The notes under the pieces were generated by a model, which worked only from the letters and a program-made list of their open reading frames with translations, was not told the DNA's origin and made no database searches. This document shows, piece after piece, positions 1 to 64,000 of a stretch of DNA of 64,000 nt. The position numbers were made by a program, and so were the translations under genes. Each line of letters starts with the position of its first letter. Position 1 is the stretch's first letter. Source of the stretch: Bilabrum cf. latius (lineage: Eukaryota); NCBI GenBank assembly GCA_965178125.1, contig OZ237736.1, positions 372,001 to 436,000 of the forward strand. Direction: 5' to 3'.

Positions 1-1750
1 CTGAACTGACAGCGCCAGAGCTCCCATCCTTTGCCGCGGCAGCAGGTTCGACCACCTCCAGCCTGGCCCGGATGCGGACGCAGCCGCCCACCGGTGTAAA
101 CTTCAGAGCATTTGACACAAGATTTGCTACAACCTGCTTGATCCGCACGGGGTCGCCTCGGATGTGACCCGGGACGTCGTCGCCGATCGCCACGTCGAGA
201 GCGATGCCCCGGCTATCGGCCGTTCGCTGGAAGGTCGCAACGATGTCGTCCAGCACCTGAGGCACGTCCACTACTTCGTCCCGCAGCTTCAGCCTGCCCT
301 GCTCGATGCGCTGGGCCTCGAGCACGTCATCGAAGATGCACTGCAGCCCCTTGCATCCTTCTTGCTGGGACCGGAGCACGTCCAATGCCTCCCTGACCTC
401 CTGGCGCAGCTCACCACTGGCAACGGTATCTGCCTTGGACCCGCTAGTGCCGCTTGTCCTCCTGCCCCGGCTGTGTCGAACTGAAGAGAGCGCCTTGATT
501 CGAGTCAGGCTCGCCTCCAGCTCGGATACTGCCAGAGACACCGCCTGAAGAGGCACCCGGGCCTCGTGGAAGATGTACCTGGTGAACTGCTGGATGGTGT
601 TCAGCCTCGTGTCGGCAGCCTCTCGCTTGTACACCTGTGCTTGCGCTGCCTGCTTCGCGACGAGGTACAGGTCGCTGTGGAGAATGGCTGCAGACGTCAT
701 GTACCGAAGAATGACGACGAGGATGTCGGTGCAGAAAACGAGAATGTCGCCGATGTCCGGCCCGACTAAAATGTCGATGTAGTAGTTGATGCCAGCGACG
801 TACACGAGGATCAACACGGCTGCAGGCACGTTTACGCGAGAGCAGCAGCTGGGTGGAGGACCTTTTTCGGCTTGCTCCGAGGGCGAGGCATTGCTTTCTT
901 CATTGCCTAGGATTGAGCTGGTGGGGTCCACGAGGTACACGGCTGGGTCACCACTCCGTCGGCTGCTCGGTGTGCCACCACCGAGGTCGAAATCGAGCCA
1001 GGGGGCCAGGTAAGGGTCCATTTGAAACCGAAACATTTCACCAAACACCAGAATCGCGGAAAGCAAGACTCCGAGGCCAAAGGGTATCTAGAGCGGGCTT
1101 CCAATATACTGCGCCAGAAAGCCGGAGACTACCATCAGTACCAAGGCAATCGACATTGCGACGACTCGCCGCAGCCTGAGTCGAACGACCAACTATCCAT
1201 CGTTCGAAAGAGCAGCTGCGCTTGAAATTGCAATAATCGCCCGGTGGTGATAGCCTGGGTGTCCCAGAACCGTTATACCATACGATAAATGCAAGCTAAG
1301 GAATGCATAGGCGGATCCAACCTGCGGAAAGCTGGGTGTAACACGTGTACATTCAATGATGATTCGATATACTGGCACTGTCCATAAATACACCCAGGCG
1401 ATTCCGGTACTCACTGCTGTGTCAAACAGAAACATTGAGGCCAGGTACATCCGTGATTTGGACGTGTCCAAGAAGGCCAGGCCGCACAATGCCAGCATGC
1501 CATGCAGAAGAAACGCACTTGACAGGGCGGCGTGCATAACTCTATCTGAGAAATCGACTGGACCCGTGCAATCCTGAGACAGTACGAAGCAGGTCGTCGT
1601 GAAGCTCCAAAAGCAACAGAGCGCTGACAGTATCAGCATGGTCAGGTACAATATCCATTCATCAAAAAAATTAGACACCATACCAATGCTGGAATAGGCA
1701 CTTGCCCTATCCGTTGCGATCCGCCTTTGGGAAAGGATATATATCTTCAT
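1..1750 (-). CDS. Multi-pass membrane sensor histidine kinase (about 8 TM + HisKA + HATPase_c); 3' end runs off the window
   Basis: ORF 1193..1750 continues in frame through TAG at 1193-1195 and 1088-1090. It then reaches the H-box (RYIFHEARVPLQAV, ~550-580), DDVLEAQRIEQG and the N-box (GDPVRIKQVVANLVSNALKFTP, ~90-160). Confidence 0.85.
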
Positions 1751-1964
1751 CTTCTAATGCCGAGTCGCACAAGATGGTCGCACTGCAAAAAACCTTGTGG
1801 ACTATGATAGCAGGTGTAAAGAATCACGAATTGCTGTTACACCTGCTCTATCCGGTGACATCACAACACTTAGCTGAATTACTGGCGAATACCGTCAATA
1901 AATATTGGAAAGCGATCCGCCAAGAATATCAGATTCGGCATTTGTAACGTGAGAAAAAAAACAC

Positions 1965-4700: not shown

Positions 4701-4896
4701 ATTCTGGTATTCTGGTACCGCCGGCCGCCGGTGGTGGCACGGTGGTGCAAGTACTTGCGTCAAAGAAGGTTTCAGCGACCATTATAGCGATTGAGCCTAA
4801 CTTTGCGATAGTCATTTGTTGTATTATTATTTTCATTGCTTCTGGGGCCGTGATAGTCGTGCTTTCCAAGATTAGAAGCAATTTCCGTCGGATCGA

Positions 4897-7800
4897 ATGC
4901 GGCGAACTGCAACTGCGACCCAGATACCAAGCCAACAGTGGACCTGCACCTGCATCATTGCCTATGCGTTGTTTGTAAGTATGTGTAAGGCGTCATCAGC
5001 CCCTGTGTACAAGGATTAGCCCAGGTGTAGTTCTATAGGGGCATAGTCAACTAGTTGGTGCCGTCATTTGCTTCCGTTGGACGTGCATCTCGAGCCATGG
5101 TTCGATGAACTTCGAGTTCGGGCGCTACTCCCAACGATTAGCCCATTCTAGCAGCTTCTAGCATCCGGCTCTGCATCACCGCAAGGCACATAGTCGAGCC
5201 CCTCTGCCGGCGTCGTGTGGATGGCTGTGGACTTGCAAGGCGATTTCCGCAAGGCGAATTCGGTGTACCTGCCGGGAGCAGTTCCTGCCGACTTTGGCGA
5301 TTGGAATTTGGAAGAAATCACACACTCCTCAACCGCCCGCGCCGACATCATCATCCGCGTCGAGGTGCAAGGCAGCAGCCTGCCGGATTCCCGGCTGGCG
5401 GGCTCGATCATGCTCGCTGACGGCGGAAGCGTCCGGGCGTGGCGAGCAACCTCGAGCTCATCGGCGCCATGGAAAGAAATCACGGGGTACAATCGCCCCG
5501 TGCTGCTGGGCCGGGGGCTTCAACTCGTTGGTGAGGGCTAGGGTGACCAGAGTGAAGGGTCTTCCGTCGTGGTGAGCAGCCGCAACGCCCTTGGCAACAG
5601 CACCCGGCGGGCATTTGACGAAGCTTCAGAGGCGCTCGCGATCCGAGTGGCCATTCCAATGTCTGCTATCCATGAGCTAGACCCGTTCAAGAACTCTGGC
5701 GCCGCGAGTGCCTGGGCGGGTGCACCCGTCGTGACCAATCAGGGCACGGCGGCGCTCGAAGCCATTTAGGACCCAGCGACTGTCTCCTGCTGGTCTGGGG
5801 GCAGATTTAGTCTTACGCAGTGCGCTCTAGCTCGGGCAACAGCCGATAGACTGAAGGAAAACCATGTGTGGGAAAAAGGGTACCGCGCTGGGGTGGAGGC
5901 TGACGACCAGTACGTCTTGGAGATCGGTATGGGAGCGGGCGAAGATGCGACATGTGCGTGGCAGGCATCGGGCACGATGTTCTGCTGGGGAAGCGGCAAT
6001 GGTGGCAGGTTAGCAACCGGTAGTACAGCGAATGTGCGCGTGCCAACCGAGATCCTTGTCGCTGGCAGTGTGATCAGCGCCAGCATCGGATACGAGGACA
6101 GCGACAACAATGTGCATGGGTGCGCTGCATTGCTCGAAGGCAGCGTGCTGTGCTGGGGCTCGAACTCGTTTGGACAACTCGGCCTGGGCGACAAAGACGA
6201 CCGAGAAAGGTTGCTGCCCCAGTCCCTATCCGTCACGCAAGCCACGCAGGTGTGCGCCGGGGCGGGCTTTTCTTGTGCTGTCATTGCCAACAAGGCGCAT
6301 TGCTGGGGCAGCAAAGACGAAGACAGGAGCGGCACGGGTGGCAACGATGCTTTCAGTCCACGCCAAATAGACGGAGGCACGTCTACGAAAGTTGCGTGTG
6401 GTAAAGACTTTGGTTGCGCTATTATCGGCGGTGGTGCCAAGTGCTGGGGTAAAGGAAGCCAGACTGGCGTCGGCGACAGAACGAGTCCATCGAGTGTATC
6501 AGGACTATCAAGTGGAATCGTTGATATTTGCGCAGGGGGGGATCATGCGTGTGCCGTACGATCGAATGGCAGGGTGGTGTGTTGGGGCAGTGGAAGCAAG
6601 GGACAGCTAGGCAGGACACCATCTAGTTCATCGCCAGGCGAGGTCACTGGAATCTCGACCGCAGTTAAAGTAAGCTGTGGGGAGTTCCATACGTGCGTCG
6701 TCTTATCGGACCGTAGTGTTCGGTGCTTTGGAGACAATGGGAATGGTCAGGTAGGCAGCGGGAGCTCAGCTTCGACAGTGGGTTCGCCAGCATTGGTGGT
6801 TGGCCTGCGTTCGGGTGCCCTCGATGTAGAATGCGGCGCACGGCATACTGCAGTCATGCTAGACTCTGGCCAAATTCAAATGTTTGGATATAACGGAGGC
6901 AGCACTGGCATTCTGGCCGTGCCCTCATTATCTGAGTCCAACACAGCGCTGACCCCCTTTGGGCTTGATGACGACATTCAAAGCGGGGCCGCCCGCAAGT
7001 CCGTGGCAGTCAGGGGGCCTGCTGCCGTCGGCAGCGATCACGTGTGCGTGCACTTGGACTTGAATCCTATTGCAGTGCAGTGCTTTGGCTCAAATGATCA
7101 CGGCTAGTTGGGGGCGGGTGATCTCGTGCACGAGATCCAGGCGTGGAGGATGCCACTTGTGCAATACAGGCTGACCCTCACGTCTCCCGTAGCCTAGCTG
7201 GCAAGCGGCGGCGCACATTCGTGCGTGATGTTCTCAGATGGTGATGTGTATTGCCATGGAAGAAACAACGAAGGCTAGCTAGGAATCGGGTCGACCTCCA
7301 ATTTAGGAGTGCCAAGATCCTCAGCAATCTCGCTGCCCGAGCCTGCAGTGGCAGTTGCTGCAGGCGACGCCCACACATGCGTTCTTCTTCTCGATGGCAC
7401 TGTGCGATGTTTCGGTAGCAACGCAAACCAACGCATCGGGCTAGGCACTGGCACTGCCAGGAGCACCTCGCCCAGCTCTCAGCTGTCCATGCCGGGAGGT
7501 CAGGACGCAATTGTCATCGGCACTGGAGCCCTGCACACCTGTGTGGCACTGCACGACACCTCCATATCCTGCTTCGGCAGCAATAGCAAAGGCTAGTTGG
7601 GAGATGGCTCGACGACGTAGCGCGGGGCCGGGAGTGCGAACAAGTGGGATGGGGGCCGCGTGAGACAGATTTGCGCGGGGGACGACTTCACGTGTGCCCT
7701 GGCGAGCGGTGGTCACATGCGATGCTGGGGAGCCAAGGAGCACGTTGGCTCGAATCCGGCTGCAGACATTACCGATGCTAGCCTCGCTGCCAATGTCTCG

Positions 7801-10800
7801 CTAGCTCACGCAGGTTTCAGCTCCAAACAGGTTGCATCGATAGGCTGCGGGGCCAAGCATGCTTGCGCTGTCACTGCCCATGGTTAGCTGCTGTGCTTTG
7901 GCGATAATTCGCAGGGGCAGTTGGGCACCGGAGACTCGACAAACAGGCCGGACTCGAGCACTGTAGCGCCGGTGCCGGTGGACTCTTTGGGATCAAGAGT
8001 TGTGCGGGTCTACTGCGGCGGGGACCGGACATGCGTGCTGCTGCAGAGCGGGGCTTTCAAGTGCTTCGGCAAACAAACGTCTTGGAAGATTGGGCATGCT
8101 TTATCCACATCAAGAACGCCAGACCAGGCAGCCGAGGTCATGTTCGGCCACAAGAAGAAGAGGGAGTGCGCCGGTGGCACGGACTGCATGTCACCGGGCT
8201 CCGCGATGCTGCAGCCCTACACCATCAACTACGATGAGACTGAAAGTTCCGAGGCGATCCTCTCGCGCTCACTCCCCAATCCAAGGACATGGTCTGCCAA
8301 TGGTTACATGTTTCCCGGCGAGGTAGACCCGCTGCTGAACGAGAGGGAGGCAGTCGGTGCCCTGTTGAGCGGGGGCTCGGTTGAGGTGCTGAGTGGAGAT
8401 GTCGTGGTTTTTGCTCCCCCTGAAACTACTCTTGATGCCCCTGCTTTTCTCAACGACACCGCTGTCGTATTTGGTAGTGCTGTCCGGAATTCGATCCTTC
8501 CGGAAGGCGGCTCAACCCTGACCATCGCACGTAATTGGGCGGCAATAGAACAGATGCAGCTGGTAGAATAGGGCAATGTGGATGTAACAGTGAGCGGCAA
8601 GCCTTGCACGAACGTGTAGACGGGAAATTGGAAGAGCATTTAGTGCAAGTCTCCTGCCGGGGACGGTCTCGGTCACGAGGTGCTCGTGTGGATTTCAACG
8701 CGCGCGCCGGGTTTGCTTCCTAGCGTGATGAGGGTTGGCTCCATCGACTACACCATGCCACTTATATCCCAAGTCACTCCAAGTGGTGGCCTGCTCCCGC
8801 GGATTAGCTCTGCTGGCACTGGATCGACGATTCAAATCATTGGCTCTGGTTTTGGCAACCCCGGAGCTTTGGCACAGGCACCAACCGTGCTGATTGGACC
8901 TTTGGAGGTGCTTTGCGACAGCATCGTTCATGTTTCCGACATCTAGTTGAGCTGCAGGATGCCGGCTGTTGCAGGCACCAACTTGCCTTTAGTGGTGAAA
9001 GTGCGCGACTCGTGGAAGAGCCCAGCCGTGAATGTGTCCACCGGAATGGCTCGAATAACTGCAATCGACCCCGCTCAGGTGCTTCCAGCGGCACCAGGAA
9101 CATACACGTACAACTTCACGATCAGCGGCACGGCTTTCAGCAAGGACCTCCTGTCCAGTATATCGGTTGGCGGAGAAGAGTGCCCAATCACCACGGTTGT
9201 GTCAGACAGCGAGATTCGATGCGATAACGTCGAGGCACCCAGGTCATGGCAATCGAACGACGTGGTTGCGACGTATGGTGGCAAGCAATTGAAAGCAAGG
9301 GGTGCGTTAAGAGCCGTAGCAGCTCCCACTGTGACATCGGCCGTGACGACGAGCGGGGTGCCTGTGGCCGGCGGCGTGCAGGTGCGTCTGGTGGGCGACG
9401 GGCTGGGCGTGTCTGCGTCTGACATAGCGTCTGTGACGTGGGCTGGTCGGTCGGTGGCATCGTCGGGGTGGGAGTGGGTGAGCACGCAGGAGGTGCGCGT
9501 GATGGTGCCGGCTCGCGTGGACAAGAGCCCGAGCGGGGACGCGGCTGCAGTGGTGGTGAGCACACGCGGGGGTCTGTCTTCGCCAGCGTACAACGTGTCG
9601 TACGACTCGATCCGTCTGGAGGTGGTGGCGCCAGTGCAGCCGCTTCCGGGGTCGGGTGTGTACGAGGAGATGTTTGAGGTGGGTGGCAGCGGGCTTCGGT
9701 CTGACACGTTGCTGGGCGGGTGGGTGGGCGGGAGTCGTTGCGGGAGCGTGAGCGTGGTTGATTCGTCTGCTTTGGGTCTTGGATCTGTGTCGGGTCCGTA
9801 TGTGCGATGCAGCGGTGTGCGGTCTCCATCGTCTTGGTCTGGTCGTGACGTGGTGCTGTCGTATGGACTGGTGGGGAATGTGACTCTTCGGGACGCGATC
9901 CGTCCGTTGAATGCTCCCACTGTGACATCGGCCGTGACGACGAGCGGGGTGCCTGTGGCCGGCGGGGTGCAGGTGCGTCTGGTGGGCGACGGGCTGGGCG
10001 TGTCTGCGTCTGACATAGCGTCTGTGACGTGGGCTGGTCGGTCGGTGGCATCGTCGGGGTGGGAGTGGGTGAGCACGCAGGAGGTGCGCGTGATGGTGCC
10101 GGCTCGCGTGGACAAGAGCCCGAGCGGGGACGCGGCTGCAGTGGTGGTGAGCACGCGCGGGGGTCTGTCTTCGCCAGCGTACAACGTGTCGTACGACTCG
10201 ATCCGTCTGGAGGTGGTGGCGCCAGTGCAGCCGCTTCCGGGGTCGGGTGTGTACGAGGAGACGTTTGAGGTGGGCGGCAGCGGGCTTCGGTCTGACACGT
10301 TGCTGGGCGGGTGGGTGGGCGGGAGTCGTTGCGGGAGCGTGAGCGTGGTTGATTCGTCTGCTTTGGGTCTTGGATCTGTGTCGGGTCCGTATGTGCGATG
10401 CAGCGGTGTGCGGTCTCCATCGTCTTGGTCTGGTCGTGACGTGGTGCTGTCGTATGGACTGGTGGGGAACGTGACTCTGCGGGACGCGATCCGTCCGTTG
10501 AATGCTCCCACTGTGACATCGGCCGTGACGACGAGCGGGGTGCCTGTGGCCGGCGGGGTGCAGGTGCGTCTGGTGGGCGACGGGCTGGGCGTGTCTGCGT
10601 CTGACATAGCATCTGTGACGTGGGCTGGTCGGTCGGTGGCATCGTCGGGGTGGGAGTGGGTGAGCACGCAGGAGGTGCGCGTGATGGTGCCGGCTCGCGT
10701 GGACAAGAGCCCGAGCGGGGACACGGCTGCAGTGGTGGTGAGCACGCGCGGGGGTCTGTCTTCGCCAGCGTACAACGTGTCGTACGACTCGATCCGTCTG

Positions 10801-13800
10801 GAGGTGGTGGCGCCAGTGCAGCCGCTTCCGGGGTCGGGTGTGTACGAGGAGATGTTTGAGGTGGGTGGCAGCGGGCTTCGGTCTGACACGTTGCTGGGCG
10901 GGTGGGTGGGCGGGAGTCGTTGCGGGAGCGTGAGCGTGGTTGATTCGTCTGCTTTGGGTCTTGGATCTGTGTCGGGTCCGTATGTGCGGTGCAGCGGTGT
11001 GCGGTCTCCATCGTCTTGGTCTGGTCGTGACGTGGTGCTGTCGTATGGACTGGTGGGGAACGTGACTCTGCGGGACGCGATCCGTCCGTTGAATGCTCCC
11101 ACTGTGACATCGGCCGTGACGACGAGCGGGGTGCCTGTGGCCGGCGGGGTGCAGGTGCGTCTGGTGGGCGACGGGCTGGGCGTGTCTGCGTCTGACATAG
11201 CATCTGTGACGTGGGCTGGTCGGTCGGTGGCATCGTCGGGGTGGGAGTGGGTGAGCACGCAGGAGGTGCGCGTGATGGTGCCGGCTCGCGTGGACAAGAG
11301 CCCGAGCGGGGACGCGGCTGCAGTGGTGGTGAGCACGCGCGGGGGTCTGTCTTCGCCAGCGTACAACGTGTCGTACGACTCGATCCGTCTGGAGGTGGTG
11401 GCGCCAGTGCAGCCGCTTCCGGGGTCGGGTGTGTACGAGGAGACGTTTGAGGTGGGTGGCAGCGGGCTTCGGTCTGACACGTTGCTGGGCGGGTGGGTGG
11501 GCGGGAGTCGTTGCGGGAGCGTGAGCGTGGTTGATTCGTCTGCTTTGGGTCTTGGATCTGTGTCGGGTCCGTATGTGCGGTGCAGCGGTGTGCGGTCTCC
11601 ATCGTCTTGGTCTGGTCGTGACGTGGTGCTGTCGTATGGACTGGTGGGGAATGTGACTCTTCGGGACGCGATCAGACCCATGAGCAGACCTACGATCTCG
11701 TCGGTAGTGTCTGCGACGTTCCCAGCGAAAGGAGGAGTTATCATTCGAATTATTGGAGATGGCTTCGGACAGTCTGCGTCTGACATTGCGGCAGTGTCAG
11801 TGGATGGCGTAGAAACTGCCTCCTGGAGCTGGATCAATACTGCAGAGGTGAATACAGTGCTTCCAGCGAGTTCAAGAAGGACTGCAGTCCTTGCAGTGCA
11901 AACCAGAACCGGTCTGTCAGCGACGTTCGAGCTGAGATATGACCTACCATCGGTTGCCAGCACTCAACCGGGCTACATCTTGTTTGGTCAAGCTGTTTCG
12001 AATGCAAACCCTATTCTCGTATGCGGAGACAACCATGCTCCAGTGGAGCAGGATGCAGAGGTATTCGGTGGAGCTAGAGTCACTGTGACAATCGCTGGTA
12101 GAGAGTGCCAGCGATCTGTGCCTGTAAACAGTAGCTGCTCTCAGTGCGTCGAGCTGCGGCAGGAGCTTGCCGATTGGTCGAAACCGCGTGTAGTACAGGT
12201 TGACATCGAAGATCGAGAGTCACCAGAGGTCAAAGTCATTGAGACGTACGGAGCGCCGCAGCTCCTTGGACTTGAGTTTGATTCATTTGGAGTCAATCAG
12301 GACGTTGTTATGTTTGCAAACAATTTAGGTGAGCAGCCAAGCGACGTGTTGGGCATCGTGCTGCAAACGGTTGAGGAGGCAACTGGCGACTCACTTCCCG
12401 TGGACGCTCAGGATGTCGTCCGGCTGAGCGACATTGTTGGTGATGCTTCCTTCGATGAGCCCAGTTTCTTTGCTGGTGCTGTGACTTCCATGCAAGGTGG
12501 CAAAGTGGAGCTCTACGGCGGTGTGCAGCTGGGCGAAGGCACGGTGTCTTTCGCGGTGCCAGAGGGACTGTACTTGTTAAACGCCAGCTAGCGCCACGCT
12601 TCGGAATAGATAAATGGCCCGTCACCGGTGGGGTATCTCCGAATATGCACCCGGGCACTCGTTTGTACGCCTGCTCGGACAGTGGCAGCTGCAACGGCTC
12701 TCACCGAGCCACCTGTTCTTGTACCATGGCAGGTGATTGCCAGGCGGCCAATCGGGGACCCGACGCAGGTTGAAGTTGTTTGGACGTATCCGTCCCCGGA
12801 CGATGAAGCCAGGCTGCTTGCATCTTTTGGTTCTTTGAGCCAGCATGCACCTGCGACCGAGTTTCAATTGGTGGTGTCGCCTGTGAAGGGGACGTAGAGT
12901 GCTCAATCGACTCCACTCGACGCCGGGGGCGAAGAGCAGGTATTCACTGTGCAGGCGCGCAGGGCACTGCTGGGCACTGCGCCGATTGGTGAGGGTGCGA
13001 GGAGGCTGCAGCAGTCCTTAATCAATGGCACCGACGACTTGGACCTGTCACTCGACATGCTCGCTGGCACAGGCTCGTACAGAGTATCGGGCACTATATC
13101 TGCGGTAAAGGCAGGTGACATTGTGAACGGTTCAGCTCCGTCTAGCGTGGCCATTTATCGTCATGTTGTCACCACGAGGCACGTCCAGCCGGTTGTGGTC
13201 GCTGTGGGTGCGCAGGACAGCACTTCCGGCAAGGCTGCGCCAGTCGCCCGAGTAGACAACGAGGTCCGTGCCTCTTGCACTGCAGATCAATTCTTCGCGT
13301 CAAAAGAGGTCAACGCAACCGAGAGGGTGTGCAGGAGCTGCCCATCCACGGTTGCACCGTGCGGCGGCTTGGAAGCAGACGAAGTGCTTGCCGTGCCCGG
13401 CATGTGGCGGGTGCCGTGGAGCAGGCAGCAGTACCTCCCCTTCGCGAGGTGTCCTAGACCTGAGCTCTGCAGGGGTGTCGAGCAGCAGGCGGTGCAAGTG
13501 CTGGGTAGGCCGCAAGTGCCACAGGCAGAGGAAGACGCTATCGGAGTTGACGCGCTGCAGTCCATGTTCGATGCCGTTGTTGACACTTCGGGTCCTCTGA
13601 ACCTGTCGTTGGTGTCGACTGAGAGAGAGCTTGAAGGCTGCGCTGGCGACCACGCCGGTGTGCTGTGCCTGTCATGCGTCAGGGGCAAGTTTTTAAGCGC
13701 TGGGGGGGACTGCAGGGAGTGTGATCCTGGCAAGGCCGCCGGCCAGGTGATCGGAGCAGCGATCCTGGCCATGATGCTGACTGCGTGCATGTTCCTGCTG

Positions 13801-40100: not shown

Positions 40101-40158
40101 GCATGGCACCAAAAAGGGCCACACCTGCTGCAGCCACTGCTGCCATTCCAGTTCGCAT
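37102..40158 (-). CDS. HYOU1: ER Hsp70-like chaperone Grp170/HYOU1
   Basis: Signal peptide containing TAG at 40096 and 40081. Motifs VLGIDFGSE, QSKRKT and LNGDEAMALG. Further TAG at 38707 and 38035. Ends in the ER-retrieval-like SEEL followed by TGA. Confidence 0.92.
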
Positions 40159-43200: not shown

Positions 43201-43433
43201 TGCGGGTGCTTCCCCTGGGGTCCTTCCCCGATGTGGGGTCACACGGTACCAAGCAGCACGGAGTGACAGTGGGAGGGTTTTCGTACGACCCGTTGACGGG
43301 GCGGGTGGGCCTCGTCAGCTGCATCGACAACCTGCTCAAGGGGGCCGCCACGCAGGCCGTACAGAACCTCAACCTGGCCCTCTACGGGAGGTAGGGCGAG
43401 TTTGCTGGGGGATTTCGGGGCCTTTTCTTTTGA
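40293..43433 (+). CDS. ARG5,6: Bifunctional acetylglutamate kinase / N-acetyl-gamma-glutamyl-phosphate reductase (Arg5,6-type) with mitochondrial-like presequence
   Basis: Kinase motifs LVKAGG, VIVHGGGPQ and NVNADVAA. Reductase motifs VALIGARGFTG, SNPGCYATG, GVSGYSGAG and IDNLLKGAATQA. TAG at 42201, 42399 and 43392; TGA at 43431-43433. Confidence 0.9.
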
Positions 43434-49318: not shown

Positions 49319-52300
49319 ATGTCCCTATTAAGTGATAGTATTAATGGCTTTTCTCCAGCCGGTAGAGCACCCTTGTATTCCCAGGATTGCTTGTGAGATT
49401 CGTGAAGTTGCACATGTGCTGGTCTTGTCGTAGCCCTTGCGGTGCGCTGCGCTACGAATGATCACTCTTTATGCATTTAGCCTCTAATTTCCAATGTGCA
49501 GAACAATATTTGTTTGTGATGGCAATCTAGTCACGGCCTTTTCTGTGCTGAACGGGCAGCGGGTGTTCTCTGCTGCTGGGCACACTGCGACGGTCACATC
49601 GGTGGTGCAGCACCCTTCTGTTGCGTCCAGGCTAGTCACTAGCTCGCTAGATGGTACAAGTGAGATTATTATTCTAGTCCCTCTCGCGATAACGCTACTC
49701 TCTGCGGTGCAATGTTTTGAATGCCGCTGCACTGGTTGTCTTGCTCGCAGTTCGAGAGTGGGACGCGCGCGATGGAGCGCATCTTAGCTGCCACGCAGTC
49801 GGTCGCCCTATTTCACACATGGTAGCATCACTTGTTTAGGATGGGATCGTGTACGCTGCTACTGTAGAATATTCGGATGGCACTGGAAGGGCCACTGGGC
49901 TTGCGCTTCCCGGCACCGAAGCAGGCGCCGCCACTGGGCACAGACCGAATGCGCTGCAGTCGGGCTCGTTGGTCCTTAAGCTATCACTGAACAGCGACAG
50001 CGCGCCGCATGCTGGGGCGAGCAGCCAGTCTGCCACCAGCAGTGCCGGTGCTGCCAGCACCTCCTCCAAGCAAGACAGGAAGCGCAAGAGGAGACGGTCC
50101 TCGTCAGCTAGCTCTACAGGAGCTGATGCTTCGGAGACAGACTCTTCTTTTGCCACTTAGGCTGCTGCACCGCCGTCAGCGGAGATCAAGCGCACGTACG
50201 CGTGCTCTGGGGCGGGGCCATGCGTCGGTCTCGCAGTGCGTCGGCGTGTCGCTAGTGTGACGAGTGCTGGGCAGGCAGCCATGGAGAGCGACGCCAGCGG
50301 CGGTTCTGAGCGAGCCGCGGGAGGCGAGTTTGTTGTCTGGGCGGGCGGGCAGACTCTCCGTGTGCTGGACACTTCCTCTGGCAGCCTTGAGGCGCACAGG
50401 CACGACAGGCCACTCACCGCCATGTCGGTCGCGAGCCAGGGAACAGCGGTCACGGTGGGTGACTCGATGGGCAGGCTGATCGAGATTGAGGCGCTGAGGC
50501 CTGGTCGCAGCGGCACGGGCTCCTCGGAGAAATCAAGCTCGGCACCATCGGAGAAATCTAGCTCGCTTGCCATCCAGGTGGCTCGGTCGCACCAGCAGCC
50601 GGGATCCAGGGGCGGCCGGGGAGACAGGGCGGTTAGGCACTGGCACTCGCACGCGGTGTGGTGCTGCGCCTACACAGAGGACGGGCTGCAGCTGCTGTCA
50701 GGTGCGGAGGAGGGCGCTCTTGTTGTCTGGCCCAGGCAGCAGCAAGGCGGGGGCAAGCCGAACTTTCTGCCGAGGCTCGGGGCTACGCTCCTCGCCATCG
50801 CGTCCAGCGACGGACCTGCCGCCGGTGCCAGCACAACCGTCGCATCCTCATCCTCATCAGCATCATCGTCGTCAGCTGCGGCGGTGCCTGTCGTTGCCAG
50901 CGCGGTGCGGGAGTCCGTGCCACCATCCTATGCTCTTGTTCTCTCGGACAGGTCGCTGCTGCTAGTGGATTCGCGCACTTTGGCCACCCTGTGGAGGGCC
51001 CGAGGGATGGCCAGTGGGGCGGCGGATGCGTCGCTGGAGGCGGTGAGCCACCGGCACCGAGCAGATCCCGGCCGAGAGCTGGCAATCTCCCTGCGGCAGT
51101 CGGCCGTTTTCGCGCCAATGCTGCCGGGTGGGCAAGGGGGGGGCGCGTCTGCCGCGACCCTGAGAAAATCGATGCTTCCGCTGCTCACCGAGACGAGCGA
51201 GTTGCGCGGCGCCTTGCCCCGTTTGCCAGCCACGGATGCAGCAGCCGTGGGTGCCGCGATCGTGTCCCAGCGGTGGCACGGAGCTTTGGCTCGATGCACG
51301 GACGCTGCTGCTGACAGGGCGTGCGCTGCCCTCACTCGGGCTGCCAGCGACGTCTCTGCGGGTTTGGGTTTGGCTGGCGGGGATTCTGTTGCTGTCACTA
51401 AGCTGGTGGGGCCTTACGTGGCTGCAGCCAAGGAGGCGGCATTCTGTGCCGGTGGAGCAGTCACGTCTACTGTCGTCGGTGTGCCAGCGTCCATTGGCGG
51501 CCTCGTGCCGTTCGACATCGCGGACGCACTGGCTCGGCAGGATGCAGATGCGTCGTATTGCAGTGCCACGGGCGGCGTCGGTGCCGTGTCGTTGCTGTCC
51601 TCATCCAGCGGTGGATCGTCGGCGGGGGTTGCGGCGCTACCTGACGGAACTTTTCTGGCGTCTGGTGCACCGGGTACTGGTGCCTTGCAGCAGCTGAGGC
51701 TGGGCGTGCTTCGTGCGTCCGGCATCGATGGCGCGGGCCTGGGCGATCAGTCGTCAAGGCCAGCAAGAGTCGTGCTATCGCATGCCGATATTGTACAGGT
51801 GAGCTAGTAGTATGCGTGCGTGCTTGTCTTGTCTTGGTTTTTGCCGTGCTGGTGATGTGCATGGTGATGGGTTGGGTTGCTGCATGTTGCCTGCTTGCCT
51901 GCTTTGTGCTGTCCTTGCTTTTGCCTACGCCGCCAAATCGCTATACCGCAACCCGTCAAGTACCCACGACGATACGCGGCACGCAATGGCGGCAAGACGT
52001 ACCCCCGCGGTTTTGTCGAAGAAACCGTGGTGCACTCTTCGAAGCTCCGCTTCTGTTTTCTCGATGGGATGACGGAGTCAAATGAGTAGCGACATCCTCA
52101 GCTGCTTGCCAGCGCTTTGTGTGCTTCCGTGCTCTCGAGTACCCACTCTATTACACGACGCAAAGACTCGCCAAGCTTTTGCATGCCTTTAATTTGTCAT
52201 TGGGCGCAGGTCTCGCCAAGGACGAACGCATCGCGTGCGGACGACACCCCGCCGCCAGACCCGGTCGTGACCCACGTGGCTGTCTCGAATGACGGCAGCA

Positions 52301-55005
52301 GCATTGCAACATCCGAAGTAGCCAGGGACGAGCTGGACGCAGGCACATCCACGCTGCGGTTCTGGCACAAGCTGCCCGGGGTACAGGGCGCGGGGTGGGT
52401 GCCCGACACGGTGGCCCACGCCCCTCACAAGCAGGGCCATCCCGTCGGCTCCCTCGTGTACTCGCCCACGCAGCACGCCGTGGTGTCGACTGCTCCCGCC
52501 AGGTCCTTCAAGCTGTGGGTGAGGGAGTCGGACACCTCCGACAAGCAGATCAAGATGTCGAGCCTGACGGTGACGCAGAGGGACAGGATGAAGCGGCGCG
52601 CTGACAGGGCCAGGCAGCTGGCCAAGAAGGCAGGACTGGACCCCAACCGAGCGGCGCGCGCGGCAGAGAAAGACGAGCTTGAGAGGGTCAAGCAGCAGCG
52701 CGCGGCCGACAGCATCCGGTGGAGCTGCAGGTCGCAGTGCTTTTGGAGGGACCTTCCCATCGGTGGAGCGAGTTTCTCAGGGGACGGTGCCGTGCTCGCC
52801 GTCGCCTACGGACCGTCGGTGACTCTGTGGGCGCCCATGGGGGGCACCTTGCTGGGGGTGCTGTCCCCGCCTCCCACCGTGGGGGTGATTTCCCCCGGGG
52901 GTCGAAAAGAAGGAAGTGTTGATGGTTTGCTGCTCGGGCCCGGCGGGGCAGCGCTTCAGGTGTGGGAGGAGCAGAGGAAGCAGGCGTCTGCTCGCCTGAG
53001 GCACGTGTGTCTGCTGCCCGACTCGTGCTTCGTGGTGGCAGCCACTGCCACGCAGGTGCAGCTGTGGGACGTGCGCTCTCTGGAGATGCTGTGGTGCCTG
53101 GATCTCGGGGAACAGTGGGAGGGCAGCAGAAGCGAATCGGAGCAGCCCGGGTCCACCAGTGGATTCGTGGTCTCGTGCGTCACACCAGAGAGGGCAAAGG
53201 ACCAGTTCACGGGGCACGCGACCCCCTCGAGATTTGCCGTCGTTCTGTCTGCCGCACAGCCCACGGTGGCCGCGTGCCAGGCGCGGTCAGCAGCAGGAGC
53301 TGCCAAGGAGGCCAGTGCTGCTACTGCCACGCCGTGCGCCGGCCTCGTGCTGCTGCTGAGCCCCTCCGCCCCCGTGCCTTTGGCCACGTGGAGGATCCCT
53401 TCACTCGTCACACCAGTGAGCCGCACGGCCCCAGTTGCGGGCGAGAGCTCTCCACTCCGCCCGGACCTGGACGAGATCTTGGCGGATGCTCGCCGCTTGG
53501 CCAGCGAGTCCCAGTCGCCGAGCAAGGGCAAGGGCAAGGGCACGAGCACGAGCAAGGGTACGAAGTCGCCAGCTCGGTCCAAGGGCAAGGGCAAGGGCAA
53601 GGAGGCGCTGTCCAACGGGAAGCCATCCTCAAAGAAGAAGCGCAAGACAGAAGGGTCGACAGACGCGGGCAAAGTGGCGGGGAGGGAGTAGGACGAGACA
53701 GCACGGGAGGCCGCGCTGGCCGCCTCGGCAGCTTCTGGGCTGCTCCTGCCGCCTGCCATCGGGGAGGGCAGGGAGGAGGAGGACAGCGTGGCCCACTACA
53801 CGGCCGCGTTGTTCCTTGAGGAACAGGCAGCGGCCTTCCGCGCGCGGGCTCTCTCGGTGGCGTTCCTCACCCGGGACCGCGCGATTGCAGCACTCAAAGC
53901 CGTGGGTTCGAAACCCGCTTCGCAGTCCTGCTGCTGCCTGATCATGACCCGGGCCGATGGTAGGATCGCCAGCCTCGGCTGGGACGGCCGCTCTGTTGAG
54001 AACGCCGCCCATGCCGCGAGTGGCGCGGGTGCATCGCACGATGTTGCTGCTGCTGCCACTGCCACTGCTGCTGCTGCCACTGCTGCTGCTGCTGCAATGC
54101 TTGAGGACGGGCCGGTCGGCCTCCGGGGTGCTGTGCCCAGCGAGGGCCACCAGGGGGCCAAGACACTGGCCAGGCTGGCGCGGGCCATGGGTGACGTCAG
54201 GAGTGACGTCATTTCCGCTGCGGTTTCGACGGGGTACGGTGCGGGTGCCCTGCCCGACGCTCGGCGTGGCCGGAAGGACACGTCGGTGCTTGGGGCTCCC
54301 TCGCACCTGCTGCCACCACTGAGCCAGGTGTTTGGATAGTTCATCATGGCCACGCTGCCTGCCTCCGTGGAGGAACAGAACCGTGTGACGAGTGGATCTG
54401 GGCGGGAGGGTGCTCAGGCGGGCGCTGCTGGTGTTGGCAGCAGCAGCAGCGGCGGCGGCGTGCATGGCCCCGACACCGGCTTTGGCGGGGAGCAGCAGCT
54501 GATTCTGGATGGGCATGGGGATGCAGAGTCGCCTTGGGTGTGGGGGATCAAAGAAGAGCAGGAGCTGCAGCTGGCGGGCAGCAGCAGCAGCACGGGCGAC
54601 GTCCCTGCGCTCACGCCGGAACGCCACGGCCAAGCTATCATCGAGCAAGGTGGGAGCAGGGAAGCCACCGAATCCGGTCGGATTCAGCCTGCCCCAGTCG
54701 TAGATTGGGAGGACCGCGAGGCCTGCATCTCGTCGCTGCTCCCATCTGGTTCAGAATTCGCGAATGAGACTGGGCGGGGTGCAGACGTGAAGGCATCGGG
54801 AGCGGCGACAGGGCCCGAGAACAAAAGCGCCTCTGCAGCACGGACACCGTAGCTTGAAAGCGGTAGTAAAGCTACTCGTTCGTTGCAGAAATCGCTTGCT
54901 TCTATGCGAAAAGCAGTTGGCGGTTCTTGGGTTGACGATACAGCGGCAAGGCGCCTCGTCGTCTTGAAGCATCTGATGCGAGGCATTGGCTCCTACAGTA
55001 GTTAA
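49319..55005 (+). CDS. WDR75: WDR75/Utp17 (UtpA, SSU processome); introns 49393-49501, 49660-49750 and 51799-52209
   Basis: Motifs TSSLDGTIREWD, HWHSHAV..LLSGAEEGALVVW..FLPRLG, TLRFW, SFKLW and PSHLLPPL. TAG at 49837, 50158, 53689, 54337 and 54850; first TAA at 55003. Confidence 0.82.
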
Positions 55006-55229: not shown

Positions 55230-55238
55230 AAAAGAAAA
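55230..55238 (-). terminator. RNA polymerase III terminator (TTTTCTTTT)
   Basis: T-runs immediately 3' of the tRNA. Confidence 0.75.
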
Positions 55239-59026: not shown

Positions 59027-59085
59027 TGCATGATTGCTGGCGCGCTTGTAGAACCTATCACCATGTCTCAATGCAGCAGCAATCG

Positions 59086-59632
59086 TTACGACGTACCGGT
59101 GGTCTTAGAGCCACCGCTTGAACCACCACTCCCTCCCCCAGAAGAACCTCTAGCGCCCCCGAATGGGGCCCCTGCCGCAGCCTCTGCCTCTTTCCTGGAG
59201 GCGTCCTGCAGCAAGTCCGTCTCTACCTCCATGGCAGGGACCTGGACGTATCGAACCACGGAGCCGCGAATGAAAATATTCTTGATTGTAGCCTGCATAC
59301 GAAGAAATAATGAATAATGCGCTCTTTGTGGGGCTGCAGCATGTGCTGCTCTGCACTGCTGTTCAGATGAAACGTCTTACCAGCTGTGGGAACCGCTTTG
59401 CATCGATCACCCTTGCATTGTCAAGCTTAAAATTCAAATACTGGTCGACACTATGCAGAATTCCCGAGATCTAGACTTCATTCTTAAGCTCTATCTGGAC
59501 AGGCTTGCCAACCAGTGTCTTGAAGAATGACACGAACAGCTGCGGGCAAATCGAAACAAAGAAGGGGCTCTCAAGAATGTACAGAGGACATAATGCTGCT
59601 TTTAAGTGTGAGATCGCTCCTGTACTCACCAT
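59086..59632 (-). CDS. LSM2: U6 snRNA-associated Sm-like protein LSm2; introns 59540-59629 (after an ATG-only exon) and 59293-59380
   Basis: MLFVSFFKTLVGKPVQIELKNEV[TAG]ISGILHSVDQYLNFKL...IKNIFIRGSVVRYVQVP. TAG at 59471; first TAA at 59086. Confidence 0.95.
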
Positions 59633-59755: not shown

Positions 59756-62127
59756 ATGGCGCACGCAGATGTCACCATAGCCTCTGCCAGCGAAGACGGT
59801 ACATTATTATGTTGGGATGCATCCAGTCTGACCCCCTTGAGTCGGCACAACCAGGCGACGTTGTAGCGAAACTGTAAGACGAGGCACACAGACTGCCCAG
59901 GTGCAACAGCAACACTGCTGCTAGCACCGGACATAATTGATTCGTAGAACATGCAGTTTATCACGGGATAGAGTGTATTCCGCACATTTCCTGCATTTGG
60001 ATGATCGCAGGTCTCAGGGTTGTCAACGGGTGCACCCCAGACTCTGTCATGCCGAGCGCACAGTACCTGTCAGGGGTGCATGCCTCAAAGCCGTCTTTCT
60101 GCAGCTGGCGCTTCGCAAAGACTTCCCCAGCGCTCTAGTTTTCTGCTCCAGAGCGTCTGTCGTGCCTTGCCTACTGCCCCACAGGCACCTTCGCAGCTGC
60201 GGGGTCCTCGAGCGGCCGCTTGTATGTGTGGGACGTCACCTCGGGTGCTCTCCAGGGCGTCATCAGGGCACACCTTAGGGGCGTATCGGCCGTCGAGTTC
60301 AACTCCTCGGGCGATCAGATCGTGACCGGAGGGGAGGACGGCCAGATCCACCTGTGGTTCCTTCAGGAGATCATCGGCCTGCCGTACGGGCCGGGGGGCA
60401 GGGCCAAAGCAGTCGCCGGGCTTGGGCTGCCCGCCGCATCGGGAAAGGCACCCGCGGGGAGCGGCGCGTCATTGCAAGCTGCATCATCATCATCATCATC
60501 ATCATCGTCGTCGTCGTCGTCGTCCTCGGCAGCTGCCGCTGGTAGGCAGCCGGCCGCCAGCCCCTTCGCGGGAGGAATTGGGCCCGGTTCAGGCATCATG
60601 AGCATGGGCGGCATGGGCGGGCGGGCCTCCCGAGAGAACAGGGTGCGACCAACGGTCACGTGGAGGCACAGCCCGTTGCCGATCACCGCACTGCGGTGCG
60701 CCCCGGGGGATATTGGTGGGTCCTTCCGTTTTGTGGCGAGTTCCAAAGACGGTGCAGTCCACAGATACCTGTCTTGCCTCAGAGATGGCCCGGAGCTGCG
60801 TGTGAAGCTGCCGGGGGGTGAGACCCCCGAGTGCCTGTGCATCGACTCGGTGACCGGCACCGCGCTCGCCGGCTGTTCCTCGGGAAACATCGCGTTCGTG
60901 GACTGGAGCGGGGTGGTGGCGGCTTCTGCACACTCGTCACACCAGGGAGCCCCGGGGGCTGCAAGCAGCGGGAGCGGCGGGAGTGCCGCCGCGGCAGCAG
61001 CCCCTTCCCAGGAGGCGAGCAAGGGTGTCTCGCTGTTCCCCGCCCACTCGGGTGCAGTGCATTGTGCCGCCTCGCTGGTGGGACCCGGCCGAGACGTGGC
61101 CGTGACGGGGGGCGCTGACGGCAAGTGCTTGGTGTGGGATGTGCCTCGGAGGGTGTGCCTGCGCGTCTTTGACAGGCATCAGGCACCCGTGATGGCCCTC
61201 GAAGTGTTCCCCGCCAACCCGCTAGCGCACTTCACGGGCGGGGCCGTGGGCGTGAGCGGGTCGTCCGCCGGTGGTGCGTCATCTGGGGCAGCGGCGGGCG
61301 CGTCAGGGAACAAATCCGGAGCCAGGCCCGGGGCCGCCGCGGTGCTGCTGCCTCCCGTGCAGCTCAGGAAACAGCCGGCCAGCTCCACCGACTCGGAGCC
61401 GATAGTCCAAGGTTCCTCGGATCGATCGATTCCGAGTTACTCGCTGCCCTCGGGGAACACTGCAGCACTGGCCGCGTGCGAGGAGTACAACCTCAAGGTG
61501 CTTGCTGAGGCGGGCGCGGCGCCGGTCACGCGAGCCCCCCACGTCCCGCGCACGATCATCCTAGACAGGACCCGGCTTCCTGACGATAGCCTCGAAGCGA
61601 TGGGTGCGATGGATAGGGAGCTGGACGAGAAGCTGGCTGGGATGGTCAGCAGCAGGGCAAAGATGGTGCTTGAGGCCATCCGGACCACGGGCTCGGCGGA
61701 CGTGATCGAGTCGATGTTCCAGCCGGTGCACAGGGGAGGGGGGTGGGTGGGCGGGGGGTTGACCGCTGAGGTTGGGGCGAGCGGTGCGGTGAGCAGCAGT
61801 GGCATTGCCGGCAGCCTTGCCGCTGCTTCGAGTGCTAGCGCGGGTCCCCCTTCGAGTGGATCGGCGGCGATGGCGGCTGAATCAGATGGCGGCAATTGTG
61901 ATGCCGACGGGAAGAGTCCCTCCAAACGAGCACGCGTAGAAGCCGTCGAGAGCAAAGGACAAGGCAGCAGCACCCCCATGGAGGGAGCGTCCGGCGATAG
62001 CCAGGCAAGCGAGACTGACGACAAGGGAACCGCGAAGCAAATCGCAGCTCTGCGCCAGGAGAACGAAAGGTGGCGCGCGGTGGCAAAGCAGCTGTCAGCT
62101 CGGCTAGGGATCAAGTTGCCGTCTTGA
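59756..62127 (+). CDS. WDR18: WDR18/Ipi3 WD40 protein (Rix1 complex); intron 59874-60010
   Basis: APERLSCLAYCPTGTFAAAGSSSGRLYVWDVTSG..AHLRGV..IVTGGEDG, HSPLPIT and a C-terminal coiled coil LRQENERWRAV. TAG at 59864 and 60136; TGA stop. Confidence 0.82.
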
Positions 62128-62380
62128 GTGTTGTCTTGCAATCTGTATTTGAGTGCAATGTGATCGAAGCATGGATGGTCTACATTGGTAAGTGCATTTC
62201 GACCTTCTTGGATCTAGGTTCGCAGGCCCATGCTTGCTCAACGCGGATACATGGGCTGGACAAATTCGGAGCCAACTTGGAGTTAACGCCGATGCGACGC
62301 GTGGCCGTAGACCGTGCAGTCATCCTGCTCGCTGCATCGACTGCAGTCCAGGAAGCACTGCTGTAGTACCGCAAATTGAT

Positions 62381-64000
62381 ATGCTTAAGAAGTCAGATCA
62401 AACTATCAGCGACACTAGCAGCGATAATCAACCTGCGAGGAAGAGAAATCGCGTATTTACACCAGACCGTCGGCAACAAGTTCGCGAAGCTAGCCGTCTA
62501 CTTCGATAGAAGCGCAGGCAAGAGATATAGCAGCTACGGGATCGAGTTGAAGAGCTTGAAAAGGAGAATGCTGATTTGCACGCACAACTGGTGCAAGTAC
62601 CCGTGTAGACTAGCTCGCTCGCAGTGGGCCAAACTGTCTTCCGTAGTGGAGTAGCAGCTCTAGAACCGCCTGTTACACAATTAAGGGAGAAATCTTAGGA
62701 ACGTCCTGCTAGACATCCTATTGGAAGTGGCATACAACAGCAAGGTGCCGCCCTGCTTTCGCAATATACCGGTGAGTGGTGAAAGAATCGTGGCAGATCG
62801 AGCCACGCCAGCGCTCGCTCGCTCGAGAATTATCACAGCTCATATTGTGGCTGCAACAGACAGTCACGCTGCTACTTCGAAATTGATGTTAAATCATTTT
62901 CATCGTTCACAGGTAAAGGTGTTTTGCACATGGAGTCGCCGGAAAGACCAGCAACTCGTGCGGCGAAGGGCAGATTTGCGGCGGTACTGCCTTGCAACAG
63001 ATCACGTGGATTTCACGTCGTCACAAGTGAAGACCGCGCTTCAAGTACCGTTCAAGCCCGAAAACTTAGAGGAGTATCCTGCGCGCTGGACTTTCCGGGT
63101 ATTCGAGGCGCTGCACCGCCAAGTGATTAGCTCCCAGAGTCTCAGGCGCCTAGATTGATAGCAGTGCCGATTCAACAGCCGGCACAGACGTTCATCAAAG
63201 CGCCCAACCCTTTGCTACCAACAGCACTAGCAGCTGTCGATGATTCGGTTCTGCTGAGACGACAAAACTATTTGCGACCGCCGCTGAAAGACTCGCATCT
63301 GCTGCGCGAACCAGTGCATTCAGCTGCAAATCCCAATGGAAGATTACCCGGCGAGTACACGGGGATACAAGGAGCGCCATTTGTCTCGCAGTCCAGCCAT
63401 CACTACATGCTCGGTGGATCGACTGGGCGGCCTTGGTCAGCCGCCGCCTCGAGAGATTACCCGGACCTTGGCCATCGGACAGCGGCATGGCAGAAATAGC
63501 AGCAGCAACACCAACAAGACATCGGTCGCGGTGGTGCATCACATATGCAGGCAGACGGGCAAGCAGGCAGCCTTCCCGTGCCTCCCACCATGGCAGCATC
63601 CGGATCATGGCCATCGTCAGAACCTCCCACCATGGCAGCATCCGGATCATGGCCATCGTCAGGACGAGCTTTGAGAACGTCCACCGAGCAGCCGAAAAGG
63701 CAGTAGCAACAGCAGCACGGCAGTGGTGCGTGGCAGTTTAGGCTATCCCTTTTCGGGCCGAAGCAGACCAGCGTTTCCTGCGGCATAGCACCCTGCTCAG
63801 CACCGCCGCCACCCCCGCCCGATTCCTCGTCATCATCGACCACCGCAACGGTGCCAGAGGCCCGATCAGGGGCTGAGGCTGTAGCGTCAATAAAACTCAG
63901 CTAGCACACTGCTGATGAACACAAGCATGTCTCTGTCGTCACCAGCGCTTCCCAGTCCAGGTCACCCAGCAGCAGGGAGTCCAGCAGCTCGATTCAGTGG
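62381..64000 (+). CDS. bZIP-like transcription factor (3' end beyond the window); intron 62772-62912
   Basis: RRQQVREASRLLR[TAG]KRRQEI[TAG]QLRDRVEELEKENADLHAQL. The frame stays open except for TAG to the window end. Confidence 0.72.
63581..63662 (+). repeat. 42-bp-period tandem duplication (PPTMAASGSWPSS x2)
   Basis: cctcccaccatggcagcatccggatcatggccatcgtcag occurs twice. Confidence 0.95.

Follow-up and report, generated by a model that had tools for sequence, protein, structure and literature searches.

Reading frames and in-frame TAG codons

The window analysed here, a stretch of 64,000 nt with 59.5% G+C, raises the question of whether TAG is translated in this genome and, if so, as which amino acid. 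Under the standard code no stop-to-stop frame exceeded 1,215 codons. When TAG was read as sense, the longest frames were 3,734, 1,472, 1,383, 1,068 and 1,046 codons, a gain of up to threefold that was obtained only with TAG; with TAA as sense the longest frame remained at 1,215 codons. In twelve frames with Pfam or homology support (12,841 codons) we found 70 in-frame TAGs, alongside 364 CAG and 110 CAA codons. Five more were found in the DUF445-like gene (three), LSm2 (one) and exon 1 of the LYAR-type gene (one). A reading made from the sequence only had reported more than 70 in-frame TAGs without frameshifts; the number holds, and no frameshift occurs across the 12,841 codons.

The twelve frames were delimited by TAA and TGA, not by TAG, so the absence of internal TAA and TGA is informative only under homology, which spans the frame in PolA (residues 1-1468), Arg5,6, HYOU1 and the RCC1 region. 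No internal TGA or TAA was found in the homology-spanned frames. Off-frame, the same DNA contained 180 TAG, 473 TGA and 69 TAA triplets; at the off-frame rate of TGA plus TAA (0.021 per codon), the probability of a 3,701-codon frame without either is about 1e-34. The TAGs are evenly distributed along the frames without enrichment at the 3' end (12, 3, 9, 7, 1, 7, 8, 5, 6 and 7 by frame decile, 65 sites in 11 frames), and homology extends across and past them in the LSm2, Arg5,6 and PolA comparisons. TAG is confirmed as a sense codon here.

Pseudogenes full of nonsense mutations would also carry TAGs, and nothing but the TAGs themselves speaks for them, apart from a reverse transcriptase (RT)-like frame at 2274-4454 that may be a dead element. 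However, 70 TAGs without a single TGA, TAA or frameshift have a chance of about 1e-119 at the off-frame rate, and the housekeeping genes show conservation over their whole length. This explanation is already refuted by the counts, and the probability left to it is negligible.

Gene content of the window

The window stems from the nuclear genome of a protist, rich in GC and poor in introns. On the minus strand, a membrane histidine-kinase-like frame (2..1861) with four in-frame TAGs runs off the window; its Pfam HATPase_c match (1.4e-04) is below the cut-off. An RCC1-repeat/IPT-TIG membrane protein (4897..16002, plus strand, 3,701 codons), recognised by Pfam WD40_RLD (3.9e-94), RCC1 and TIG, contains 27 in-frame TAGs and stops with TAA. 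The family-A DNA polymerase PolA (20329..24741, minus strand, 1,470 codons; Pfam DNA_pol_A 6.1e-84) contains ten, the last of which (20335) is two codons before the TGA stop. Two plus-strand frames are without TAG: a UMP-CMP/adenylate kinase (25050-25703; Pfam ADK 5.4e-36), for which Protein Atlas gave only "eukaryotic UMP-CMP kinase", and a CaMKII_AD-like frame (25870-26607; Pfam CaMKII_AD 2.4e-15). This region (25050..26607) terminates in TGA. It is followed by a DUF445-like membrane protein (27226..28335, plus strand; TAGs at 27607, 27874 and 27946, stop TGA), which Pfam DUF445 matches only weakly (8e-06, under the cut-off), and by a protein kinase (30337..34335, minus strand, 1,332 codons; Pfam Pkinase 1.6e-26) with eight in-frame TAGs and a TGA stop.

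The HYOU1/Grp170-type Hsp70 (37102..40158, minus strand) was recognised by Pfam HSP70 (3.8e-60), by PDB matches to Sse1/BiP and by relatives named "hypoxia up-regulated 1"; its C-terminus reads ...SEEL followed by TGA. Two of its four in-frame TAGs lie within the N-terminal hydrophobic leader, in agreement with the earlier statement that the signal peptide is interrupted. A fused acetylglutamate kinase/NAT/N-acetyl-gamma-glutamyl-phosphate reductase of the Arg5,6 type (40293..43433, plus strand; Pfam AA_kinase, NAT, Semialdhyde_dh and dhC) contains three in-frame TAGs, one of them (43392) 13 codons before the TGA stop. The WDR75-like nucleolar WD protein (49819..55005, plus strand) comprises the frames 49819-51855 and 52069-55005 with eight TAGs and a TAA stop; the TAGs at 51805 and 51808 adjoin a likely intron and are probably intronic. 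Its Pfam match to Beta-prop_WDR75_1st (1.1e-09) is below and that to Beta-prop_WDR75_2nd (2e-08) above the cut-off.

A LYAR-type zinc-finger protein (plus strand; exon 1 from 57985, exon 2 to 59026, stop TGA) contains TAGs at 58003, 58184 and 58610. The first separates two Cys residues of the first finger, exon 1 reading MPYFNCXAC, and the second is inside the Pfam zf-LYAR match (2.6e-10, residues 2-27). LSm2 (59083..59620, minus strand; PDB LSm2 chains 1e-15) has two exons, a TAG at 59471 within the Sm fold and a TAA stop. The positions that had been quoted for the TAGs 58003, 58184, 59471, 43392 and 20335 are all correct. The last protein (60001..62127, plus strand; Pfam WD40 8.3e-18) has one in-frame TAG (60136) and a TGA stop. 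The name WDR18 proposed for this one could not be confirmed, its PDB matches being generic WD40 proteins only. The only tRNA gene in the window is a tRNA-Val(CAC), and no rRNA was found there.

A diverged relative with in-frame TAGs

L001, an independent metagenome contig from a diverged relative, is syntenic with the window, including the kinase and CaMKII_AD-like region. It contains 43 in-frame TAGs in five frames (4,310 codons), and all five terminate in TGA. The PolA orthologs are 58% identical over residues 1-1468, and the window TAG at 22378 corresponds to Q in L001. The kinase/CaMKII_AD region is 71% identical to L001 6589-7644, where one L001 TAG faces a window Q, and the DUF445-like gene is 76% identical to L001 343-1203; here the residues opposite the three window TAGs are M, E and E, and one L001 TAG faces a window Q. 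Both organisms have TAG at only one of the 33 aligned TAG sites in these three ortholog pairs, which indicates that the reassignment is old and that TAG turns over like ordinary synonymous Gln codons. On this sequence evidence a second, diverged organism has the same code, which is new here, and given L001 the TAG habit is not an assembly quirk of a single sample. No tRNA gene was found in L001, and no eRF1 gene in either the window or L001. A scan of genome contigs with the lineage-specific PolA N-terminus found no relative. A further sequence, L002, gave a PolA match at 27%.

L001 also bears on whether the TAGs are translated as such at all, or are base-calling errors or sites where U-to-C RNA editing restores CAG. 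Among the words sampled from a 6.3-kb stretch, only 93-95% occurred in three runs guessed to be RNA, a shortfall that cannot be interpreted without read alignment, but 100% occurred in four runs that are possibly the source sample; none of the seven runs is listed as RNA. The 43 TAGs of the independent contig stand at other positions, TAG was never a checked terminator, and we know of no nuclear U-to-C editing on such a scale. We consider errors or editing highly improbable.

TGA and TAA as terminators

TGA and, less often, TAA appear from the gene ends to be the only terminators. TAA terminates three window genes, among them one that stops 233 bases before the tRNA gene; the others terminate in TGA. 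Since TAA and TGA remain terminators, the change is limited to UAG. The common UAR-to-Gln code (table 6 type) would have UAA also as Gln, merely rare because of the high GC. TAA triplets are scarce across the window (218 and 239 on the two strands) and no L001 frame terminates in TAA, which is compatible with such a code. However, its criterion, in-frame UAA as Gln, was met neither in the window nor in L001: internal TAA was found in none of the 12,841 window codons (about 21 expected from the CAA:CAG ratio) and in none of the 4,310 L001 codons (about 26 expected). TAA as sense extends no long frame, and the three TAA-terminated genes also stand against this code, which we judge very unlikely.

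It is more difficult to exclude a context-dependent UAG, read as Gln inside genes and as a stop at some gene ends. Dual meanings have precedents in Condylostoma and, for UAA, in Blastocrithidia. TAG is found near the TGA of PolA and Arg5,6, another TAG follows the TAA of the second WDR75 frame by four codons, and a TAG terminator would not be directly visible because the frames were delimited without TAG. However, the Arg5,6 homology passes the "terminal" TAG, GEFAG aligning with DEFAGI of the relatives, the PolA proteins of window and L001 share the alignment column of their last residue, and the TAGs lack 3'-end enrichment. The sequence-only reading had maintained that no recognised gene needs TAG as its stop and that apparent TAG ends run on to TGA. 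Both statements stood: no checked C-terminus was at TAG and every checkable end was TGA or TAA, with only a handful of ends checkable by homology. A stop function of TAG at some ends is therefore unlikely, but keeps some weight.

Amino acid assigned to TAG

Gln is the best-supported meaning of TAG, as judged from alignment columns and ortholog pairs. In L001, TAGs are located at the invariant Gln of the polymerase motifs DYGQIEMR and PNLQNLP, where Q was found in 120 of 120 and in 98% of 121 Pol I HSPs, respectively; the column set came from polymerase-domain search matches, mostly bacterial Pol I. Across the three window/L001 ortholog pairs, 14 of the 33 aligned TAG sites are opposite CAG or CAA in the other organism, and in conserved context 12 of 18. 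Within the window, the TAGs at 7105, 7276 and 7594 take the place of Q in the GQLG of RCC1 repeats. Q fills 62-66% at these three columns (about 1,700 aligned HSP columns), and 65-72% at four control GQLG sites of the same protein coded by CAG or CAA.

Column log-odds gave Q 6.0, S 2.0 and E 1.0 for 22 window TAG sites, and Q 7.8 and E 3.2 for nine L001 sites, with all control codons decoded correctly (10 of 10 in the window, 7 of 7 in L001). The Gln enrichment whose absence was to refute the reassignment is thus present in both organisms. The Gln signal from the window organism alone is moderate, with the three RCC1 sites contributing most of it. The window PolA TAG at SFXVSS falls where 90% of 97 bacterial Pol I HSPs have N, yet the L001 ortholog has Q. 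Two candidate markers were rejected: LSm2 TAG 59471, a variable site since the solved LSm2 chains have E or S there, and the Arg5,6 TAG columns, which are variable and so uninformative on the residue.

UAG encodes other residues in some other lineages, and in the window organism it might likewise stand for, say, Glu or Ser. In conserved stretches of the L001 orthologs, the residue opposite a window TAG is E in two cases, S in two and M in one, and S and E were the runners-up in the log-odds. But Q is ahead by 4 to 5 log units, the GQLG sites with TAG behave as those coded by CAG or CAA, and the close relative L001 clearly has Gln at invariant sites; Q-to-E and Q-to-S substitutions are, besides, common. 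We give little credence to another residue. The Gln assignment of the sequence-only reading is supported by the GQLG, PolA motif, ortholog and log-odds evidence, and has no RNA or peptide evidence.

Proposed explanation

We are highly confident in the explanation as a whole, that this is nuclear protist DNA in which the stop UAG has become Gln, UGA and UAA are the stops, and the code is common to at least one diverged relative. UAG would be decoded by a tRNA-Gln bearing the cognate anticodon CUA, which differs from that of tRNA-Gln(CUG) by one base; there is no tRNA evidence for this step. The eRF1 would have lost recognition of UAG and kept that of UAA and UGA, which is likewise inferred without an eRF1 sequence. 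New TAG codons might then arise freely from CAG through C-to-T transitions.

Placement of the organism

The organism is most likely a stramenopile outside oomycetes and ochrophytes, a placement that has two genes behind it, together with a quick tree built from one gene and lacking an outgroup. Among the best 120 HYOU1 matches, all 24 relatives that were fully named are stramenopiles (22 oomycetes, Nannochloropsis and Hondaea), and three further names were incomplete. The best named Arg5,6 match is Cafeteria. In the tree the query fell among unnamed sequences, separate from both the oomycetes and the ochrophytes. The PolA polymerase-domain search was useless for placement, returning mostly bacterial Pol I. 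The sequence-only reading could not identify the organism from this window; here it is placed near stramenopiles. The closest full-length HYOU1 match listed, P0016, is an uninterrupted entry of 1,024 residues.

Comparison with known code changes

Nuclear code changes are rare, and we found none reported in the literature for stramenopiles. The sequence-only reading called UAG-only reassignment to Gln rare, and the portions of the sources available to us agree, giving it only for Iotanema spirale and a few ciliates (PMC11687900, PMC5304391). Rarer still are changes of UAG without UAA, which PMC11687900, in its accessible part, gives for a single fornicate, a single rhizarian and a single green alga, plus a few ciliates. 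Iotanema spirale (Fornicata) has the same assignment in a non-ciliate, UAG as Gln with UAA as stop, within what could be consulted of PMC5304391 and PMC11687900. It differs in supergroup (Metamonada) and is known from a transcriptome, with T32G reported in the eRF1 GTS motif (PMC5304391, available in part); in contrast, the window genome is GC-rich and its code is common to a second diverged species. The ciliates Protocruzia tuzeti and two phyllopharyngean lineages (NCBI table 15 type) also share the assignment, UAA and UGA terminating (PMC11687900, same portion). The window is unlike ciliate DNA in its G+C content, its long chromosomal gene arrays and its stramenopile HYOU1 relatives.

In the UAR-to-Gln codes of many ciliates, Hexamita, Streblomastix, ulvophyte green algae and Amoeboaphelidium, a stop was likewise captured by Gln, going by the same incomplete sources (PMC11687900, PMC5304391). 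The capture presumably took place via a mutated tRNA-Gln. UAA is also sense in those codes, whereas in the window no gene contains it internally and three terminate with it. The rhizarian exLh (UAG to Leu) and Scotinosphaera (UAG to Ser) likewise changed UAG alone with UAA as stop, as given in the part of PMC11687900 at hand. Their residues differ from that of the window, where Leu was outside the eight highest-scoring residues and Ser scored 2.0 against 6.0 for Gln.

With a chance only somewhat better than even, this may be the first stramenopile nuclear code change, an old and clade-wide UAG-to-Gln reassignment with UAA kept, in a GC-rich lineage outside oomycetes and ochrophytes, where UAG was uncoupled from UAA independently and TGA is the dominant stop. 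So far this lineage would be known from the window genome and an environmental relative whose proteins differ from it by about 40%. One more independent origin, in a supergroup from which no case has been reported, would help in testing two ideas on what usually ties the changes of UAG and UAA to each other: eRF1 constraints and tRNA wobble. A GC-rich genome with mostly TGA stops is a prediction of the route in which the codon is first freed up and then captured. Assemblies of this organism and its relatives need annotation with TAG as Gln; standard gene callers will fragment most of their genes (longest frame 1,215 against 3,734 codons), so that proteins will be missing or truncated in databases.

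In-frame TAG codons in the window genes

Stop-to-stop frames in the window were at most 1,215 codons long when read with the standard code. With TAG read as sense, the longest frames reached 3,734, 1,472, 1,383, 1,068 and 1,046 codons, and reading TAA as sense lengthened no window frame. The twelve frames backed by homology (12,841 codons) contained 70 in-frame TAG codons, versus 364 CAG and 110 CAA, and five more TAGs were found in a DUF445-like gene (three), LSm2 (one) and LYAR exon 1 (one). Two TAGs in the WDR75-like gene are probably intronic. A sequence-only reading had reported TAGs within intact genes of the window; this was confirmed, and the five TAG coordinates it named (58003 and 58184 in LYAR, 59471 in LSm2, 43392 in Arg5,6 and 20335 in PolA) are all correct.

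Read in its two remaining frames, the DNA of the twelve homology-backed frames contained 180 TAG, 473 TGA and 69 TAA. Compared with the in-frame counts, this indicates that TAG is tolerated in frame near the background rate, unlike TGA and TAA, which are excluded. Given the off-frame TGA plus TAA rate, the probability of the 3,701-codon RCC1/TIG frame (4897-16002, + strand) lacking both codons is about 1e-34, and that of all 12,841 codons lacking them, at the off-frame rate, about 1e-119. The frames were bounded by TAA or TGA, so finding neither codon inside is informative only for stretches covered by homology.

A syntenic relative

Through scanning metagenome contigs with the protein of PolA, the family-A DNA polymerase of the window (20329-24741, - strand), we found a 15.9 kb contig (L001, G+C 55.7%) whose PolA shows 58% global identity with residues 1-1468 of the window protein. 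The neighbouring genes are orthologues of the window CaMKII association-domain frame (71%) and DUF445-like frame (76%), indicating that the two loci are syntenic. The five long frames of L001 (4,310 codons) contained 43 in-frame TAGs, 23 of them in PolA, and no TAA; all five end with TGA. The in-frame TAGs are therefore no quirk of a single assembly and are older than the split of two well-separated organisms.

The syntenic block of L001 includes an extra gene, not present in the window, encoding a bacterial-type alpha-L-rhamnosidase (2126-6304, + strand; Pfam Bac_rhamnosid6H, 1.8e-46) with ten in-frame TAGs. If bacterial in origin, this gene has since adopted the code of its host.

The residue encoded by TAG

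Two TAGs in L001 PolA fall on conserved polymerase motifs. At the DYGQIEMR site the aligned residue was Q in 120 of 120 Pol I HSPs, and at the PNLQNLP site in 98% of 121. Three ortholog pairs gave 33 aligned sites with TAG in one partner, 14 of which had CAG or CAA opposite; at the sites in conserved context, defined as 10 or more identities among 20 flanking residues, this rose to 12 of 18, with S opposite two of the others, E opposite two, and P and M opposite one each. Only one aligned site in these pairs had TAG in both organisms. In the RCC1 repeats, three window TAGs occupy the Q of the GQLG motif, with column Q of 62-66%, and four CAG- or CAA-coded GQLG sites in the same protein gave 65-72% (about 1,700 HSP columns against 150 RCC1 proteins).

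A column log-odds test used BLOSUM62 conditionals and required five or more identities within eight residues on each side. At 22 window TAG sites Q scored 6.0, ahead of S (2.0) and E (1.0), and at nine L001 sites Q scored 7.8, ahead of E (3.2); all control codons were decoded correctly (10/10 window, 7/7 L001). The claim that TAG encodes Gln, with Gln enriched in the TAG alignment columns, is thus supported by the invariant-Q sites, the ortholog pairs, the GQLG motifs and the log-odds. TAG makes up 13% of Gln codons in the window (70/544) and 21% in L001 (43/208).

Counter-evidence was also found. The LSm2 TAG column is variable (E or S), the TAG columns of Arg5,6 (fused acetylglutamate kinase/NAT/reductase, 40293-43433, + strand) are variable, and three TAGs of the window DUF445-like gene stand opposite M, E and E. 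Opposite the window PolA TAG at SFXVSS, 90% of 97 bacterial sequences have N, although L001 has Q.

Remaining stop codons

TAA terminates the RCC1/TIG gene, the second frame of the WDR75-like gene (52069-55005, + strand) and LSm2, and the other window genes end with TGA. No internal TAA was found, against about 21 (window) and 26 (L001) expected from the CAA:CAG ratios if TAA encoded Gln. TAGs are spread evenly along the frames. The earlier proposal that no recognised gene needs TAG as its stop agrees with the ends checked by homology: the Arg5,6 homology runs beyond the last TAG (GEFAG aligned with DEFAGI), and the PolA orthologues share an end column although the window TAG stands two codons before TGA. 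With so few gene ends open to checking, a minor second role of TAG as terminator is not ruled out.

Lineage and novelty of the code

Among the best 120 matches of HYOU1 (Grp170-type Hsp70, 37102-40158, - strand), all 24 fully named organisms were stramenopiles (22 oomycetes, Nannochloropsis and Hondaea); three further names were incomplete. The named matches showed 37-44% identity and the best match 49%. The best named match of Arg5,6 was Cafeteria (46%). In a quick maximum-likelihood tree without outgroup, the query joined unnamed sequences (SH-aLRT 99 for a set of three), separate from oomycetes and ochrophytes. From sequence comparison, and with moderate confidence, the organism may be assigned to an unsampled stramenopile lineage.

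According to the portions available of PMC11687900 and PMC5304391, Iotanema spirale, Protocruzia tuzeti and two phyllopharyngean lineages read UAG alone as Gln, one rhizarian reads it as Leu and Scotinosphaera as Ser, whereas UAR stands for Gln in many ciliates, Hexamita, Streblomastix, ulvophytes and Amoeboaphelidium. Full-text literature searches gave no stramenopile with an altered nuclear code (subscription journals and supplements were outside the scope), and in the accessible part of a 2024 stramenopile overview (PMC11412368) the sole mention of "genetic code" is a mitochondrial reference. We consider the reassignment of UAG to Gln in this nuclear code, which retains UAA and UGA as stops, to be real and common to a clade. 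The code table is already known; the lineage appears new, and this is probably the first such code in stramenopiles. The observation made from sequence is confirmed, and its interpretation supported.

As a probable route, by inference alone, a tRNA-Gln(CUG) gene copy would have acquired the anticodon CUA, and eRF1 would have lost recognition of UAG while keeping UAA and UGA. TGA would already have ended most genes, UAG would first have been released from its role as terminator, and it would then have been refilled via CAG-to-TAG transitions.

Gene content

The window (64 kb, G+C 59.5%) contains eukaryotic nuclear genes with few introns in long same-strand runs. Pfam and PDB matches identified a histidine-kinase-like frame, the RCC1/TIG membrane protein, PolA, the DUF445-like membrane protein, a protein kinase, HYOU1/Grp170, the fused Arg5,6-type enzyme, a WDR75-like protein, a LYAR zinc-finger protein, LSm2 and a WD40 protein, for which the proposed name WDR18 remains unconfirmed. 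A UMP-CMP kinase frame followed by the CaMKII association-domain frame (25050-26607, + strand), an arrangement kept in L001, is probably one gene with an intron. In PolA, some 30 consecutive serines separate conserved polymerase blocks, and its long N-terminal half showed conservation only with L001.

In translation, the RCC1/TIG protein shows a tandem array of four almost identical units, each about 185 residues long (9075-11786); two long antisense frames over the same stretch, one of 903 codons and one of 804, are probably spurious. An RT-like frame (2274-4454, + strand) with two TAGs gave a partial RVT_1 match (1.8e-05) below cut-off and is possibly a decayed or dead retroelement. Three long TAG-sense frames without family match, at 44298-46106 (+, six TAGs), 62930-64000 (+, four) and 18406-19656 (-, three), may represent either lineage-specific genes or non-coding DNA. 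A further frame without family match (46713-48758, ten TAGs) may be non-coding; a long simple repeat within it (47718-48025) translates in that frame as a run of Ala-Gly dipeptides. The sole RNA gene found in the window was tRNA-Val(CAC) (55238-55312, - strand), located 233 bases downstream of the terminal TAA of the WDR75-like gene.
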